Of a DNA stretch of 64,000 nt, positions 3,303 to 31,267 are shown one piece after another (position 1 is the stretch's first letter; every line of letters begins with the position of its first letter). Where the stretch lies: positions 9,082 through 73,081 of IMG/VR virus record IMGVR_UViG_3300005611_000013; one strand, given 5' to 3'. Under the pieces are notes generated by a model. That model did no database searches, was not told the DNA's origin, and worked only from the letters and a program-made list of their open reading frames with translations. Made by a program: the position numbers and the translations under genes. The stretch is from a virus (taxonomy: Duplodnaviria > Caudoviricetes).

Positions 3303-4106
3303 TCACCAACTTACGCTCTCATAATCGTCGCAATCCTTCCAGCCTGCGTCTTCGTCATCATCGCAATCCTCATCATCGTAGTATTCATCTACAACCGCTG
3401 GGATAAGATCGCCATTGTATTCTCCAACAACTTCATATCCGCAGCAGCGAACCTTCTGATGCATACTGTCAAGCGGGACGCTAACAACATCTGCTGGATC
3501 AACCTTGCAGATAACAACCTTGTCGCCAGTGCTACCGTAAGACTTGACATAATCAATAGCCCCAACGTGCAGCCCATTGGAACACCCAACATCACAGTTA
3601 TCGTCAACTTGATGACGCTTTACGCGAGGGCACTGACCAACGGAGTTGTTAATCGTGCCAGAATACTTATCCATAAAGTCTGGACGAACAGCCTTATACG
3701 CCAGAAAATAACCGTCTGGAGTAATCGGCAGAAACTTATGCTGGAGGAATGTATACAGTTCGTTGATAGCCCTGAATGATGGATTCTGGTACAATCGCTC
3801 AAGGAATCGTAGCATTGGGCTGTGATCAAAACCGCCCTTCAGCATCTCTACAATGCGATCAGTGATAACATCGTGAACCTGTTCTCCATCATACCACAGA
3901 ACACCATCTTCAAACTTAAAATCGCCCTCACTCCAGTTCTCAACATGTACGCCAGTGTTGAAAACGTTGAGAAACTCCTCTGAATCTCCCGTCTTGATAC
4001 AGTCAATCAGACCACTATAGTCTGCGTGACTTGGATCAAACTGATAACTTTGATTGTCAATAACAACGGTGTACTGGTTCTTGGAATCTTTAATGTGTGT
4101 TAGCAT
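3303..4106 (-). CDS. rIIB: rIIB-like lysis-inhibition protein
   Basis: NPS...ELYTFL...PITPDGYFLAYKAV...CSNGLHVG...KVDPADVVSVP motifs; lies directly after rIIA. Confidence 0.88.
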   Translation of the reverse strand: MLTHIKDSKNQYTVVIDNQSYQFDPSHADYSGLIDCIKTGDSEEFLNVFNTGVHVENWSEGDFKFEDGVLWYDGEQVHDVITDRIVEMLKGGFDHSPMLRFLERLYQNPSFRAINELYTFLQHKFLPITPDGYFLAYKAVRPDFMDKYSGTINNSVGQCPRVKRHQVDDNCDVGCSNGLHVGAIDYVKSYGSTGDKVVICKVDPADVVSVPLDSMHQKVRCCGYEVVGEYNGDLIPAVVDEYYDDEDCDDDEDAGWKDCDDYESVSW

Positions 4107-6127: not shown

Positions 6128-6430
6128 TCACGAGAAAGATTGAAATTTTCGCTCTTCTGCTGAAAATGAAAATGGCTCTTCAGCGAAGTCAACACACTCC
6201 TCTAAGAAGAAATCCCACTCTTCCATAAATCTCTCAAGATTCTCATCTTCTACTATATATGTTACATGGTCAATCTCGTCTTCATACCACACAACCATCC
6301 TATCGCCACCTTCGTAATCTACATCCTTTATATCAACATTTAATGTTCTTGATACGGCAATCTGAACGGGATTGTGTTTTGGATTATTCATAGCCTTAAC
6401 GATATCATTTTCTGTAACGTTGATAATCAT
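6128..6430 (-). CDS. Hypothetical protein
   Basis: ORF translationally coupled to the thyX stop. Confidence 0.6.
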   Translation of the reverse strand: MIINVTENDIVKAMNNPKHNPVQIAVSRTLNVDIKDVDYEGGDRMVVWYEDEIDHVTYIVEDENLERFMEEWDFFLEECVDFAEEPFSFSAEERKFQSFS

Positions 6431-8121
6431 TTCCAATCTAAAGCCTCCGAGATAATAGGTAATTGTTCCACAAAAATTTGCTTAATAGAATTTGCTATAT
6501 CCATATGTTCTTTTTGTGTTCCATTTGACGACCTTAATTCTATATAATGAATCCATGAACGTATACTGCCCGTCATATATAATTTGGTAGGCGTTGCGAG
6601 TGGTAAAACAAATCTGGCACACTCTTTCGCTACACCATCTTTTAGTAGAGACTCATACAGTCTAACAGATTTATAAAAATGCTCTTCAATTACACGCTTC
6701 CAATAATTTTTTATATGGGGCTGTATGTCATCAATGCTATTTTGTCTATTCTTATTATCTTGACTTCTTATGTCTGGGCATTCTATTTTGCCAAGCAACT
6801 TTGCATCTGCGTATCTTTGGCTATTATGTACAATTACTCCATCTGCTACATAGTTATGTGAATCATGATCAATTTCTAAATCGTATGTCATTTCTTTACC
6901 AATGTATTTCACAAATTTAATCTTTGACCACGATACTGTCATAGTATTTCCAATGCCCTTCTCTTTCCATTTTTTATGATCCCCATTCAATCTATGATGT
7001 TTCATGTGACAGTTGGAATGAACTGGCATGAGATTAGAGTATTCTCTAGCAAGAGACATATTTTCTGATACTGGAATAATATGATGTAGGTGTGTGCGAC
7101 TATTTAACTTATCTCCACACATACCACAACAGTAGTTGTATTCTTTCATAAGTTTATTACGAAACTTAGATATATCTGCTTGAATTTTTTGTCGTTCTTT
7201 GGCTACTCCACCTTTCCATAAATTAGAATCTTTTCCCTTTTTTGAGGAATCTCGCATCTTCTGTTTTGTTTCCTCAGATCTTAAACCACTAGAATATCCA
7301 AAAACACCTTTATTCCAGATAGGAGTATATGAAGAAACTTCTTTCTTTGTAAAGCACAAGTTGTGTTTTTTTAGCCATTTGCGAATTGTATGAATAGATA
7401 CACCAGCAGTATTAGCAATACCAACCAATCCGGTTCCGTCGCTAATACTCTGCTTCTTATGTTCTAACAGCCAATTGTAATCTTGGTGAACTGGAGTGCC
7501 ATTACATCCAACAGCAATATTATTACTAATAACAGCGGTATTACCAACTAGTTTTAGTCCAGTAGCATCTTGAAGAGAAACAAAACCATTTTTGGTCAAA
7601 ACCTTATGTTCTTTAGTGCATTTAATAGATTTGCCGTTTTCCAAAACAATTTCAAAAATATCTTTCATTCCAGTTTGAAAAACTTCTTTGATGTGAGCAT
7701 GACTTAGTGTTTTGGATATTTCGTCATACACTCTAACGAACATATTACGAATACGATTTCGTGAGTTCTCATTCTTTGACCAGTTTTTATATAGATGCTC
7801 TAAAGTAAGCGAATATTTTTGCCTTTTGCCCTTTTTTATAGCGTTTGGTAAGTCAAAATACACATTGGTATCTCCAGACATACAAAACTCTTGAAATGTA
7901 AAACTTCTGTGTCTTAAAATTTGTGCGGCAATCGCCCTTGTTGTGGTAATCTCTAGCGTCATGTAACCCTGCTCAAAAATACTCCAGTGTTGATTTTTTA
8001 TGCAGTAAGCGATCAGTTTGCTGTAATCATCCCGATCTTGCCCGTTTGGGTTGGACACTCTAGCACAGTATGCAATCAGCTTTTCTGCGTCTGGAGTTAT
8101 TGATATCAATTTTACTTCCAT
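6427..8121 (-). CDS. thyX: Flavin-dependent thymidylate synthase ThyX, intein-interrupted
   Basis: AYCARVS...HWSIFEQ...QILRHRSFTFQEF|intein|SQRY...ECARFVLP...GSIRSWIHYIELR...TQKEH. Confidence 0.95.
   Translation of the reverse strand: MEVKLISITPDAEKLIAYCARVSNPNGQDRDDYSKLIAYCIKNQHWSIFEQGYMTLEITTTRAIAAQILRHRSFTFQEFCMSGDTNVYFDLPNAIKKGKRQKYSLTLEHLYKNWSKNENSRNRIRNMFVRVYDEISKTLSHAHIKEVFQTGMKDIFEIVLENGKSIKCTKEHKVLTKNGFVSLQDATGLKLVGNTAVISNNIAVGCNGTPVHQDYNWLLEHKKQSISDGTGLVGIANTAGVSIHTIRKWLKKHNLCFTKKEVSSYTPIWNKGVFGYSSGLRSEETKQKMRDSSKKGKDSNLWKGGVAKERQKIQADISKFRNKLMKEYNYCCGMCGDKLNSRTHLHHIIPVSENMSLAREYSNLMPVHSNCHMKHHRLNGDHKKWKEKGIGNTMTVSWSKIKFVKYIGKEMTYDLEIDHDSHNYVADGVIVHNSQRYADAKLLGKIECPDIRSQDNKNRQNSIDDIQPHIKNYWKRVIEEHFYKSVRLYESLLKDGVAKECARFVLPLATPTKLYMTGSIRSWIHYIELRSSNGTQKEHMDIANSIKQIFVEQLPIISEALDWK
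6823..7884 (-). mobile_element. Intein (354 aa) with HNH homing endonuclease in thyX
   Basis: Starts CMSGDT, has block B CTKEHKVL, ends TYDLEIDHDSHNYVADGVIVHN with +1 Ser. Internal CGMCG...HLHHIIP...NLMPVHSNCH HNH and a NUMOD3-like RSEETKQKM. Confidence 0.93.
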
Positions 8122-8479: not shown

Positions 8480-9481
8480 TTAACTCCTTGAATAAACTAC
8501 GGTTTTATCTATACTTTTCCTATTGCCACTCAAGTTCTGGTTCACTTGTCTAGCTGAAGATGCAACATTGTATTCACAAGTATACTCGTAATTATTAATT
8601 ATGTGTTCGTGATTTATATCATCCCACATCTTGTATTTACCAATATTAGCAACGTTCCAGCACGATCTTCCATTCTGCTCTAAATTGTTTACACATATCT
8701 TAATTAGAGGGTTTAAAAAAGTATTAACCCAATCTCCATATGTATCCGTATTTGCTATTGATTGAGTTTCTTCATCTGAATATATTTCCAAATCAAAGTA
8801 TGGGGGACTTGTTAAGCATATCTCAGTTTTTGGTATATCATATTTATGAAAGTTTAAAGCACTGTCATTTATGATATGTGTATATTTTTCTATACCTAGA
8901 AATGCTATTACTTTTTGCAGGTTCTCATAAGTTTTTGTATTTGGTTCAAATGCGTAGTATTTGCATTTATTTGCAACGGCCCCAACCATTCTTCCTCCCC
9001 ATCCTGCACATGGATCAAATACTGTTTTACATCCCTGTGTAATCATTTTTGACATTTGGGGACGATACATTGTACTCTTGGTTGATCCAGAGCAAAAATA
9101 AATACCACGTTTTAACTCAGATAGATATGGGGTTGAGTGGCTTTTTCTATTCCAAACCAATACTTTTTTCAATAGGTCTATATCTTGCCAAGCTTTGGAG
9201 AATGAAAAACCTTTTGATGTTTGTATATCGTAGAAGTTTGGAAAAAAATGCTCACAAATCTTCATTCCGATTCTACTTGTGCTTGAAAGATATTTTTCAC
9301 TGGAATCAAATCTACATAGATTATCCCAATCTTTCTTCAGAGATTTTTCATCATAGCAAGACTTATAATCTACCTCTGATAGCTGCAAAGCCAAACTATC
9401 TAGATTATCATAGAAGTCTTTGTCCGACAGGTTTCTTGTGGAATATCTTTTATTTAGTATGTCCTGTATTTGAATATTCAT
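8480..9481 (-). CDS. Amino (N4-C/N6-A) DNA methyltransferase
   Basis: Motif I VFDPCAGWGG and motif IV TSPPYF. Confidence 0.8.
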   Translation of the reverse strand: MNIQIQDILNKRYSTRNLSDKDFYDNLDSLALQLSEVDYKSCYDEKSLKKDWDNLCRFDSSEKYLSSTSRIGMKICEHFFPNFYDIQTSKGFSFSKAWQDIDLLKKVLVWNRKSHSTPYLSELKRGIYFCSGSTKSTMYRPQMSKMITQGCKTVFDPCAGWGGRMVGAVANKCKYYAFEPNTKTYENLQKVIAFLGIEKYTHIINDSALNFHKYDIPKTEICLTSPPYFDLEIYSDEETQSIANTDTYGDWVNTFLNPLIKICVNNLEQNGRSCWNVANIGKYKMWDDINHEHIINNYEYTCEYNVASSARQVNQNLSGNRKSIDKTVVYSRS

Positions 9482-10075: not shown

Positions 10076-10097
10076 AATGTTTACCCTTGATATAAAG

Positions 10098-10448
10098 TGG
10101 AGGCGGGCGGAGTCGAACCGCCGTGTTGTATAAATTTCCATATAAACTTCTACATGTTTATCTAATCTTATTTTCTAGACATCTTGATTCAAGACTAGCA
10201 GAACATACAAGTGTCAAGCAACTGTTGCTTAGGCCAGTACCGTTGCTATGCTGGCAGCAGGAACATTTTACAGCGATTTTTCGGACCCTAGTTCCAACGG
10301 TTCCTAAAATCGTCGTTACCTTCTCAGGCAGCGAGAGCTAGATGAGTTTCGCCATCTAAAGCGTTTAGTCCAGTTTTAACGTAGCCTCTAGACTAACTAC
10401 GACATGCGATCTATATTTCTTTTTATCAATCGATGCCTTTACGCCCCC
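10098..10448 (-). ncRNA. ssrA: tmRNA, predicted tag (A)GETHLALAA
   Basis: Acceptor GGGGGCG/CGCCTCC-A with G3.U70; T-arm GGCGG-TTCGACT-CCGCC; UAGAU-GGC resume context; reading frame ends LALAA-TGA. Confidence 0.92.
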
Positions 10449-18086: not shown

Positions 18087-18548
18087 ATGAATCAAAAGTA
18101 TGACTATTCTAATCTTGAAAGTATTTGTGCTGATTCTCGCAGTTATCGTGAATGTTTACTAAAAATAGGCTGTTCTGCTGCCGCTGGAGGGCATTATGAA
18201 TCCATTAAAAGTGAAATAAAAAAACGTGGCATAGATATTTCTCATTTTACACATAAAGGATGGAACAAAGGGAATACTCCAAATCCATCAAAACCAATTG
18301 AAGACTATTTAAGTAATAAACAAACAATTCAATCCTTTAAACTAAAGGGCAGATTGATTAAAGAGAAAATCTTTGAACATAAGTGTTACGAGTGTCAAAG
18401 GGAAATATGGCTTGGTGAGCAAATTCCCCTTGAGTTGCATCACATTAATGGTAATAACAAAGATAATTCACTTTCAAATCTCACCCTTCTTTGTCCAAAT
18501 TGTCACGCTCAAACTCGCAATTATCGTGGAAAAAATAAATCTAAATAG
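18087..18548 (+). CDS. HNH endonuclease, convergent on tRNA-Leu
   Basis: CYECQ...LELHHINGNNKDNSLSNLTLLCPNCHAQT; the stop TAG overlaps the tRNA-Leu 3' end. Confidence 0.88.
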   Translation: MNQKYDYSNLESICADSRSYRECLLKIGCSAAAGGHYESIKSEIKKRGIDISHFTHKGWNKGNTPNPSKPIEDYLSNKQTIQSFKLKGRLIKEKIFEHKCYECQREIWLGEQIPLELHHINGNNKDNSLSNLTLLCPNCHAQTRNYRGKNKSK

Positions 18549-18817
18549 GAACGGTGGGACTCGAACCCACACTGAACGGATTTTCTTACTACTATAACTT
18601 TCGTTACCATTTCTGTTTGTAGTCTGGACTTTATCTTAACCATGACTTTCGTCTTAGGTTCCTGCCGTCAAGTCTCTACACCTTCCTATTACTAGGCTTG
18701 GCTCGGTATTGCCATATTAAAGGTTTCACCGAATTTGACAGGTTCTACTTTATTAGTTTCTTAATAAGCACTCAAATTTCTCTAAGTCCGATGCCTCTGC
18801 CTTTGGGCTACGTTCCC
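18546..18817 (-). tRNA. tRNA-Leu(TAA) split by a group I intron
   Basis: 5' exon 18817-18784 GGGAACG...TCGGACTT; 3' exon 18584-18546 AAAATCCGTTCAGTGTGGGTTCGAGTCCCACCGTTCCTA. The spliced loop is CT-TAA-AA. Confidence 0.88.
18585..18783 (-). mobile_element. Group I intron (199 nt, IC3-like, no internal ORF)
   Basis: P AAATTCGGTGAAACC, Q AATACCGAGCC, R GTGTAGAGACTTGA, S AAGATAAAGTCC; IGS GAGT pairs with exon ACTT; terminal G; GNRA hairpins. Confidence 0.9.
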
Positions 18818-31065: not shown

Positions 31066-31138
31066 TAGGGGCGGTGGGACTCGAACCCACGATTTACGGT
31101 TTAAAAGACCGTTGCTTTAGCCACTAAGCTACACCCCC
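31066..31138 (-). tRNA. tRNA-Lys(TTT)
   Basis: GGGGGTG...ACGGT-CT-TTT-AA-ACCGT...GTGGG TTCGAGT CCCAC CGCCCCT A. Confidence 0.92.
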
Positions 31139-31175
31139 ATATTATCATTATACGACACTTGCGAATCCTGTCAAG

Positions 31176-31259
31176 TCCCAGATGGAGGAATTGAACCACT
31201 TGACGCCACCCTACATAATATGTCAGTTGATTTACAGTCAACCGTAGGGATCATCTGGG
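31176..31259 (-). ncRNA. Non-canonical tRNA-Tyr(GTA)-like RNA lacking a D-arm
   Basis: CCCAGATG/CATCTGGG-A acceptor, GTTGA-CT-GTA-AA-TCAAC anticodon arm, TTCAATT T-loop; only 9-10 nt where the D-arm should be. Confidence 0.65.
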
Positions 31260-31267
31260 TATTATAG

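Follow-up and report, generated by a model that had tools for sequence, protein, structure and literature searches.

Outside mitochondria, the cloverleaf with its D hairpin is treated as a nearly universal property of transfer RNA. Among the described RNAs that come closest to the one considered here, the D-arm-lacking tRNAs of mitochondria, such as nematode mitochondrial tRNA-Ser, are shortened and flexible molecules that work with co-evolved mitochondrial factors (PMC7609411), and the (8/4) tRNAs and allo-tRNAs of bacteria and phages, which are Ser, His, Cys/Sec-like or suppressor species, keep the D stem-loop (PMC5389517). The element described here lies on the minus strand of a 64,000-nucleotide stretch of a viral record (IMG/VR IMGVR_UViG_3300005611_000013, positions 9,082 to 73,081; this whole stretch is called the window), and it follows neither plan. 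It is probably a phage tyrosine tRNA gene, belonging to a phage-restricted family in which the D hairpin is absent and a pseudoknot takes its place, and whose product would be charged with tyrosine and used in decoding.

Judged by sequence, the nearest relatives of the family are ordinary phage class II tRNA-Tyr(GUA) genes (for example L056, L076 and L177:763-846), which resemble it in the CUGUAAA anticodon loop, A73, a long variable arm, a TTCRAYT T loop, a position within tRNA clusters and a length of about 85 nt; many family members also share the anticodon arm and first variable-stem bases of the canonical phage genes (GCGGA-CTGTAAA-TCCGT-TGCC). Unlike these genes, the family has no D hairpin, the partner of its D-stem-like strand being located 3' of the anticodon arm in the variable loop, and its acceptor/T branch is built as 8/4 rather than 7/5, with the window's copy carrying in addition a C1-G72 pair. 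An 8 + 4 branch, a long variable arm, occurrence in phage clusters and the failure of standard models are shared with the (8/4) tRNAs and allo-tRNAs (Mukai et al. 2017), but those possess a tRNA-Sec-like D stem-loop (a long stem with a tetraloop) and have Ser, His or allo specificity, whereas the element has no D hairpin and combines GUA with A73; neither a pseudoknot nor a tRNA-Tyr of this kind is mentioned in that paper (PMC5389517). Selenocysteine tRNA (tRNA-Sec, RF01852) is similar in its extended acceptor, long variable arm and 6-bp D-region helix, but it has a UCA anticodon, a 13-bp branch and a true D hairpin, in contrast to the GUA anticodon and 12-bp branch of the element. The mitochondrial D-arm-less tRNAs, which also lack the D hairpin and function in translation, show that the hairpin is dispensable in principle, but they have neither a long variable arm nor a replacement helix, whereas the phage RNA is full-length and appears to have the helix rebuilt. 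A viral pseudoknotted RNA with tyrosine identity (A73, C1-G72 and an anticodon mimic, like the window's copy) is the tRNA-like structure (TLS) of brome mosaic virus (BMV), a plant RNA virus (PMC9976931); however, the BMV TLS forms the 3' terminus of an RNA genome and takes no part in decoding, it is recognized by a eukaryotic tyrosyl-tRNA synthetase (TyrRS), and it uses its pseudoknot to form the acceptor arm and not the D region, and the element has no sequence or Rfam similarity to TLSs of the BMV type. No description of the fold was found in the full-text literature or the viral structured-RNA catalogue, a coverage outside of which one 2026 coevolution-mining preprint falls.

Read along the minus strand, the segments of the element succeed one another as CCCAGATG / AT / CCCTAC / G / GTTGA CTGTAAA TCAAC / TGAC / ATATTAT GTAGGG TGG C / GTCA / A / GTGG TTCAATT CCTC / CATCTGGG / A, with coordinates collected in Table 1. 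The preliminary description of this DNA, made from the sequence of the window, had listed an acceptor with C1-G72 and A73, a GTA anticodon arm, a T loop and no D hairpin, and all of these are found where it placed them; the imperfect T stem that it noted has 4 bp including one U.U, and the acceptor stem has 8 bp rather than 7. Because only 9 nt (AT CCCTAC G) separate the 8-bp acceptor from the anticodon stem, no D hairpin is possible, and the 8-bp acceptor together with the 4-bp T stem makes a 12-bp acceptor/T branch, as in 7/5 tRNAs. The other features of the cloverleaf are kept, namely the acceptor and discriminator, a 5-bp anticodon stem with a 7-nt loop (U33, purine 37), a TTCRANN T loop and the 12-bp branch. 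In the 25-nt variable region of the window's copy, the CCCUAC strand would pair with GUAGGG inside the loop of the variable arm, itself closed by UGAC/GUCA, which would create a pseudoknot.

Standard tools do not see this RNA. ARAGORN makes no call on the element, the Rfam tRNA model RF00005 (gathering score 29 bits) has no match on positions 31100-31340 even at E values up to 10, and the best Rfam match, to tRNA-Sec RF01852 at 20.4 bits (E = 0.077), does not reach its gathering score of 47; the other matches are chance. Folding of the single sequence into its nested minimum free energy structure recovers the acceptor and a continuous linker/anticodon helix, with a z-score of -1.15 that is not special, and by our estimate the chance that a linker of 9 nt and a loop of 17 nt in one sequence contain complementary 6-nt stretches is about 1%, which is only mildly improbable. 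Proof of the pseudoknot is comparative.

Relatives were sought among viral contigs by several routes. An exact scan returned identical copies in two other contigs, a pattern fixing only CCCTAC, CTGTAAA and GTAGGG returned 54 viral loci, and scans anchored on the anticodon arm or the T arm, which left both pseudoknot strands free, returned many further copies. A covariance model (R1) built from 45 seed sequences, in which the crossing helix was deliberately modeled as unpaired, gives scores of 50-110 bits to about 125 members in 197 sources, where ordinary tRNAs reach no more than 38 bits; the window's copy scores 80.4 bits, a value obtained by construction because this copy was a seed sequence. 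The roughly 125 copies comprise 88 unique sequences, 87 of them unique Tyr sequences, and not one of the 125 is called by ARAGORN. The family layout consists of an 8-bp acceptor, a 2-nt linker, the 6-bp crossing helix, a 3-4 bp variable stem, NGG, a 4-bp T stem, GUA and A73, a typical member having G1-C72, A73 and an encoded CCA; in the window's copy none of these segments is missing, and all of them align in register with those of the other 87 unique members.

The distribution of the family points to phages. Among 185,579 bacterial and archaeal species-representative genomes, a first pattern gave no match and a second gave 41. Two of these reach the scores of members and lie on short contigs of metagenome-assembled genomes with tRNA neighbors; the remaining 39 are chance matches. 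The sequencing-run DNA that holds the element comes from 12 studies labeled aquatic, marine, subsurface and soil. A blastn comparison of the window region and three subfamily representatives with GenBank phage isolates returned no member, and thus no cultured carrier was found. Taken at the level of the family, these are very probably phage-restricted, non-cloverleaf tyrosine tRNA genes.

Support for the pseudoknot comes from covariation. In the family alignment (A1), pairing amounts to 100% in the acceptor, 99% in the crossing helix, 99.6% in the anticodon stem, 97.8% in the variable stem and 74% in the T stem, the last value being low because of a conserved U.U that is the family norm (TAGG/CCTT in 63/87). 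Sixteen pairs have changed on both sides, including 4 of the 7 pairs of the crossing helix, and 0 of 500 shuffles match the observed values; if the partner strand of the crossing helix is slid by 1-3 columns, pairing falls to 35-56%. The 6-bp core of this helix occurs in 29 distinct variants among the 87 unique Tyr sequences and is 98.9% paired, whereas 2000 shuffles average 73% and never exceed 82%. The variants include CCCTAC/GTAGGG, CCCAAC/GTTGGG, CCCTGC/GCAGGG, CTCTAC/GTAGAG, CTCTGC/GCAGAG and CTACAC/GTGTAG, as well as CCATTC/GAATGG, CCACTC/GAGTGG, CCTAGC/GCTAGG, CCACTT/AAGTGG, CCCATC/GATGGG and CCTCTC/GAGAGG. The variable stem likewise shows compensatory variants (GCC/GGC, GAC/GTC, GGC/GCC, ACC/GGT, GTCC/GGAC, GCT/AGC), and the anticodon loop CTGTAAA is invariant. 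Because the crossing helix and the variable stem both covary, both are real, and the way in which their strands alternate along the RNA is that of a pseudoknot.

A second pattern of substitution concerns the elbow. Directly after the 3' strand of the crossing helix stand the bases NGG, of which the last G, in a 19-like position opposite the invariant T-loop C56, is itself invariant (87/87), whereas the middle, 18-like base varies with T-loop position 55, being G with U55 in 74 sequences and A with G55 in 12; a single sequence departs from this rule. Within the T loop, pair 54:58 changes from T:A to A:T in seven sequences. This is the pattern predicted for a contact of the G18:psi55 / G19:C56 type, and it supports a model in which UGG docks on the T loop as G18 and G19 do and the L shape would be restored, with the crossing helix stacked on the anticodon stem in the place of the D stem; the stacking is suggested by the continuity of the strand from CCCTAC through G into the anticodon stem and by the ability of G17 to pair with U49 in most members. 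The preliminary description had proposed that CCCTAC/GTAGGG and TGAC/GTCA, arranged in pseudoknot order, rebuild the elbow of a novel tRNA architecture with TGG as a G18/G19 substitute, and had named homologs and covariation of the two helices as the check, with a decayed pseudogene as the outcome if there were none. With about 125 copies and 29 paired variants of the crossing helix, the comparative data bear out the architecture, and the role proposed for TGG gains support from the contacts with C56 and position 55.

The assignment to tyrosine is strengthened by what the carrier phages otherwise lack. Of the 76 loci in which the element occurs alongside 10 or more tRNAs, 3 (4%) also have an ordinary tRNA-Tyr, whereas each of the other specificities is represented in 57-88%. 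An element-free comparison set, having been retrieved via the Tyr anticodon arm, contained tRNA-Tyr in 100% by construction and was left unused. One genome (G001, 343.6 kb, rated 99% complete) encodes 32 tRNAs for 19 amino acids with Tyr alone lacking and the element inside the cluster, and in a 224.7 kb genome with terminal repeats the element is present and ordinary Tyr absent. Likewise the window has 7 ARAGORN tRNAs, an intron-split tRNA-Leu and a transfer-messenger RNA (tmRNA), and its contig, 73 kb long and about 48% complete, has no canonical tRNA-Tyr. Two of the three "ordinary Tyr" calls, 88-89 nt long and made by ARAGORN in L030 and L040 (L040:10753-10841), are class II RNAs with a U discriminator and atypical anticodon loops, and may not be tyrosine tRNAs at all, in which case the replacement of canonical Tyr is even cleaner.

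The bases by which a bacterial TyrRS recognizes its tRNA, namely A73, G34, U35, a long variable arm and G1-C72 (PMC9976931), are largely conserved across the unique family members, with A73 in 87/87, G1-C72 in 86/87 and GUA throughout. The window's copy retains A73, G34, U35 and a long class II variable arm, although the loop of that arm is engaged in the pseudoknot and its geometry toward TyrRS is predicted only. A TyrRS gene (PF00579) was found neither in the contig of the window nor in five carrier records, some of which are fragments, so that absence is unproven; the RNA would accordingly depend on the TyrRS of the host for its tyrosine. On the model favored here, the gene would be transcribed together with the neighboring tRNAs and then trimmed, a host enzyme would add CCA (no tRNA of the window's phage encodes it) to give a 3' end reading ...CAUCUGGGACCA, host TyrRS would charge the RNA via A73, G34/U35 and the long variable arm, and the GUA anticodon would read phage UAY codons.

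The copy in the window represents, as far as sequence goes, a divergent sub-lineage with an inverted acceptor top. No other member has diverged as far: the nearest sequence of the alignment is 72% identical to it, and of the 26 positions at which it differs from the consensus, 20 fall in helices. Both bases have been replaced in nine pairs, of which the acceptor accounts for six, the anticodon stem for two and the variable stem for one, and all nine still pair. The three top acceptor pairs are inverted to C1-G72, C2-G71 and C3-G70. Of about 112 phage tRNA-Tyr compared, 87 of them pseudoknotted and 25 canonical, no other has C1-G72; the other 86/87 unique family members and the 25 canonical sequences start with G1, apart from one that has A1. 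The preliminary description was right, per PMC9976931, that C1-G72 is the archaeal/eukaryal state, and this state is not that of the family.

The same 84 nt recur with 100% identity in three further settings. These are L001/L197/L002, phage with only about 70% nucleotide identity to the window in coding DNA; L198, a close relative of the window (95.7% identical upstream); and L199, in which the 13-nt spacer has 3 changes. Genuine tRNAs that these phages have in common are conserved to a like degree (100% in the exons of tRNA-Leu, 92.5% in tRNA-Ile). Identity of the 84 nt within differing flanks argues against a pseudogene, although recent exchange of tRNA blocks could contribute.

Table 1. Segments of the predicted tRNA-Tyr gene and of its 3' flank, in coordinates of the window
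Feature	Position	Strand	Remark
Whole gene: pseudoknotted, D-hairpin-less tRNA-Tyr(GUA), as predicted	31176..31259	minus	84 nt, CCA not encoded; from sequence
Acceptor stem 5' strand CCCAGATG (C1, C2, C3...)	31252..31259	minus	8/8 paired with 31177-31184
Acceptor stem 3' strand CATCTGGG	31177..31184	minus	A73 at 31176
AT linker; single G	31250-31251; 31243	minus	flank CCCTAC on either side
Crossing (pseudoknot) helix 5' strand CCCTAC	31244..31249	minus	sits in place of D-stem 5' strand; partner 31209-31214
Anticodon arm GTTGA-CTGTAAA-TCAAC	31226..31242	minus	anticodon GTA = 31235..31233
Variable-arm stem 5' strand TGAC	31222..31225	minus	partner GTCA 31201-31204
Variable loop: A/U-rich linker ATATTAT, then 3' pseudoknot strand GTAGGG	31221..31215; 31214..31209	minus	
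TGG (31208..31206) + C	31205..31208	minus	proposed D-loop G18/G19 substitute
Variable-arm stem 3' strand GTCA	31201..31204	minus	crosses pseudoknot helix; helix 4 of alignment A1, 97.8% paired
T arm GTGG-TTCAATT-CCTC	31185..31199	minus	4 bp including one U.U
13-nt spacer; 17-nt tRNA-Gly(TCC) 5' remnant GCAAGTGTCGTATAATG	31175..31163; 31162..31146	minus	outside the tRNA; remnant = first 17 nt of tRNA-Gly(TCC); rearrangement breakpoint

Several observations speak against a functional tRNA-Tyr and have to be set beside this evidence. The covariation statistics ignore phylogeny and were obtained without R-scape, and the A:G55 state of the elbow may reflect few independent events. All copies of the C1-G72 sub-lineage are identical, and it therefore offers no covariation of its own; C1-G72 runs against the bacterial rule for tyrosine, making the window's copy possibly a poor substrate; and its T stem is weak, with 3 Watson-Crick pairs and one U.U. 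That the spacer is conserved in three contexts could be due to recent exchange no less than to selection. Of the contigs from RNA libraries, two (X17, X18) cover the upstream gene only, and one of 151 nt, in X20, covers 31176-31263 with L001-like flanks, such contigs being unable to show transcription, ends or CCA.

Finally, the adjoining tRNA-Gly has been truncated by rearrangement, although the element itself is intact. In L001, L197 and L198 an intact tRNA-Gly is followed by tRNA-Asn and tRNA-Thr, whereas homology of the window ends at about 31140-31146, inside the D loop of tRNA-Gly, and the Asn-Thr genes follow only after about 10 kb of different sequence in which tRNA-Lys, Ile and Gln lie. 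The intact order in the relatives marks the remnant as a rearrangement breakpoint within a tRNA D loop. A TTGACA-16-TATAAT sequence 3' of the gene was considered as a promoter and rejected, as it consists of the spacer and the 5' end of the tRNA-Gly that is intact in relatives, although it might still act as one.

What the rewired core might be for invites a bolder proposal, which we regard as rather unlikely: that it is an escape form, in which half of the D stem has moved to the variable loop, TyrRS, EF-Tu and the ribosome would still accept the RNA, and defenses that destroy tRNA-Tyr would not, the sub-lineage of the window having taken a second step with the C1-G72 inversion. The anticodon loop of the family is canonical, which would leave the rewired body, or in the window's copy the acceptor end, as the source of any such escape.

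It is also conceivable, though quite improbable, that the family is functional and the sub-lineage of the window alone has changed in acceptor identity, being charged poorly or differently, or serving a non-decoding role such as escape from a nuclease directed at the acceptor stem. C1-G72 is a tyrosine determinant in archaea and eukarya, bacteria using G1-C72 (PMC9976931), and is unique to this copy among the phage tRNA-Tyr compared; the inversion of three top pairs with pairing kept looks directed, unlike drift, in a phage whose other tRNAs obey bacterial rules (for example Gln U1-A72/G73). However, A73, G34, U35 and the long variable arm are all present (Table 1 of PMC9976931), some TyrRS ignore the 1-72 pair, the human mitochondrial enzyme among them (PMC9976931), and the 73 kb contig, at 48% completeness, shows no second tRNA for Tyr.

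The preliminary description had left open a choice between a new tRNA architecture and a tRNA mimic; the former is borne out, and the latter has become less likely. In its developed form, the mimic would stay out of translation and serve as a decoy or sponge, drawing off either a host defense nuclease directed at tRNA-Tyr, like PtuAB of retron-Eco7, or some other factor that binds tRNA. Host systems that deplete tRNA-Tyr do exist and are countered by phage tRNA-Tyr genes (PMC11555353), phage tRNAs evade anticodon nucleases (PMC10264068), and a rewired core with an inverted acceptor top could alter recognition by host enzymes, but the published rescue works through a supply of functional tRNA-Tyr (PMC11555353). 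Moreover, the element occupies the place of tRNA-Tyr in arrays whose other members serve the remaining 19 amino acids, and a decoy would not need A73, G1-C72, an encoded CCA, the 12-bp branch and the G19:C56 contact to be jointly conserved. With ordinary tRNA-Tyr replaced in near-complete sets and the determinants of aminoacylation kept, we hold a decoy to be improbable. Lastly, the idea of a tRNA-Tyr pseudogene, left to decay where tRNA genes are being rearranged, is scarcely credible. The silence of tRNA finders, the T-stem mismatch, the unencoded CCA and the truncated tRNA-Gly might seem to point that way. However, none of the five helices is broken, although the copy departs from the consensus at 26 positions, and nine pairs carry compensatory changes on both sides; the 84 nt do not vary among four contexts with differing flanks, and the supposed defects are norms, the U.U of the family (63/87) and the missing CCA of every tRNA in the window.

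The contig around the probable tRNA-Tyr gene carries rIIA/rIIB-like genes, thymidylate synthase, terminase and virion genes; its TerL is at most 27% identical to that of any cultured phage, and the host is therefore not inferable from the terminase. All RNA genes of the window lie on the minus strand and include, besides the element, which is flanked by an open reading frame (ORF) of PHROG 624 and tRNA-Lys, the tmRNA, tRNAs Arg-TCT, Thr-TGT, Asp-GTC, Asn-GTT, Gln-TTG, Ile-TAT and Lys-TTT, and a group I intron; CCA is encoded by none of the seven other tRNAs, and these keep to bacterial rules. The phage-encoded tmRNA (10095-10448, minus; Rfam 97.5 bits) has the tag peptide GETHLALAA. The intron (RF00028, 69 bits, 18604-18793) splits a tRNA-Leu(UAA) at 18543-18817 (minus) that ARAGORN does not call, and L002 and L199 have intron-less tRNA-Leu(UAA) with exon sequences 100% identical to those of the window. 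Between 24001 and 36000, a region that holds the element, tRNA-Lys and tRNA-Ile, G+C rises to 0.44 from about 0.35-0.37 on both sides and short ORFs are dense; the block looks like a mosaic module. A 564-aa ORF at 6427-8121 (minus) matches thymidylate synthase at its ends and HNH endonucleases in its middle (residues about 289-386), and the insert in this thyA ORF is possibly an intein or other insertion.

Two further loci recall the family. On the 523,836-base contig L177, a gene at 3512-3600 (plus) has a like architecture with a CCA (Trp) anticodon, A1-U72, G73 and an encoded CCA, and its linker CCCGCT can pair with GGTGGG of a long variable loop (4 Watson-Crick and 2 G.U pairs); the 44-tRNA array to which it belongs has no ordinary tRNA-Trp, and both an ordinary and a pseudoknotted tRNA-Tyr. 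Exact and loose scans for a second relative with a Trp anticodon returned only L177 and coincidences in coding sequence. The Trp relative hints that the scaffold can be retargeted. In L189, found with the T-arm scan, the family T arm is followed by TATCAACC-A-CCA, and no GTA anticodon arm or 5' acceptor strand is recognizable within 72 nt upstream; the sequence may be another unusual or interrupted tRNA.

Widespread full-length tRNAs with a pseudoknot for a D hairpin would constitute a new route to the L shape, and would explain why large phage tRNA sets appear to be missing exactly tRNA-Tyr. They expose a blind spot of ARAGORN and of the Rfam tRNA model. The C1-G72 copy of the window is a natural test of how far bacterial TyrRS depends on the first base pair, and may be of use as an orthogonal tRNA scaffold; were the rewired core an escape form, it would itself be a natural, structurally orthogonal scaffold.
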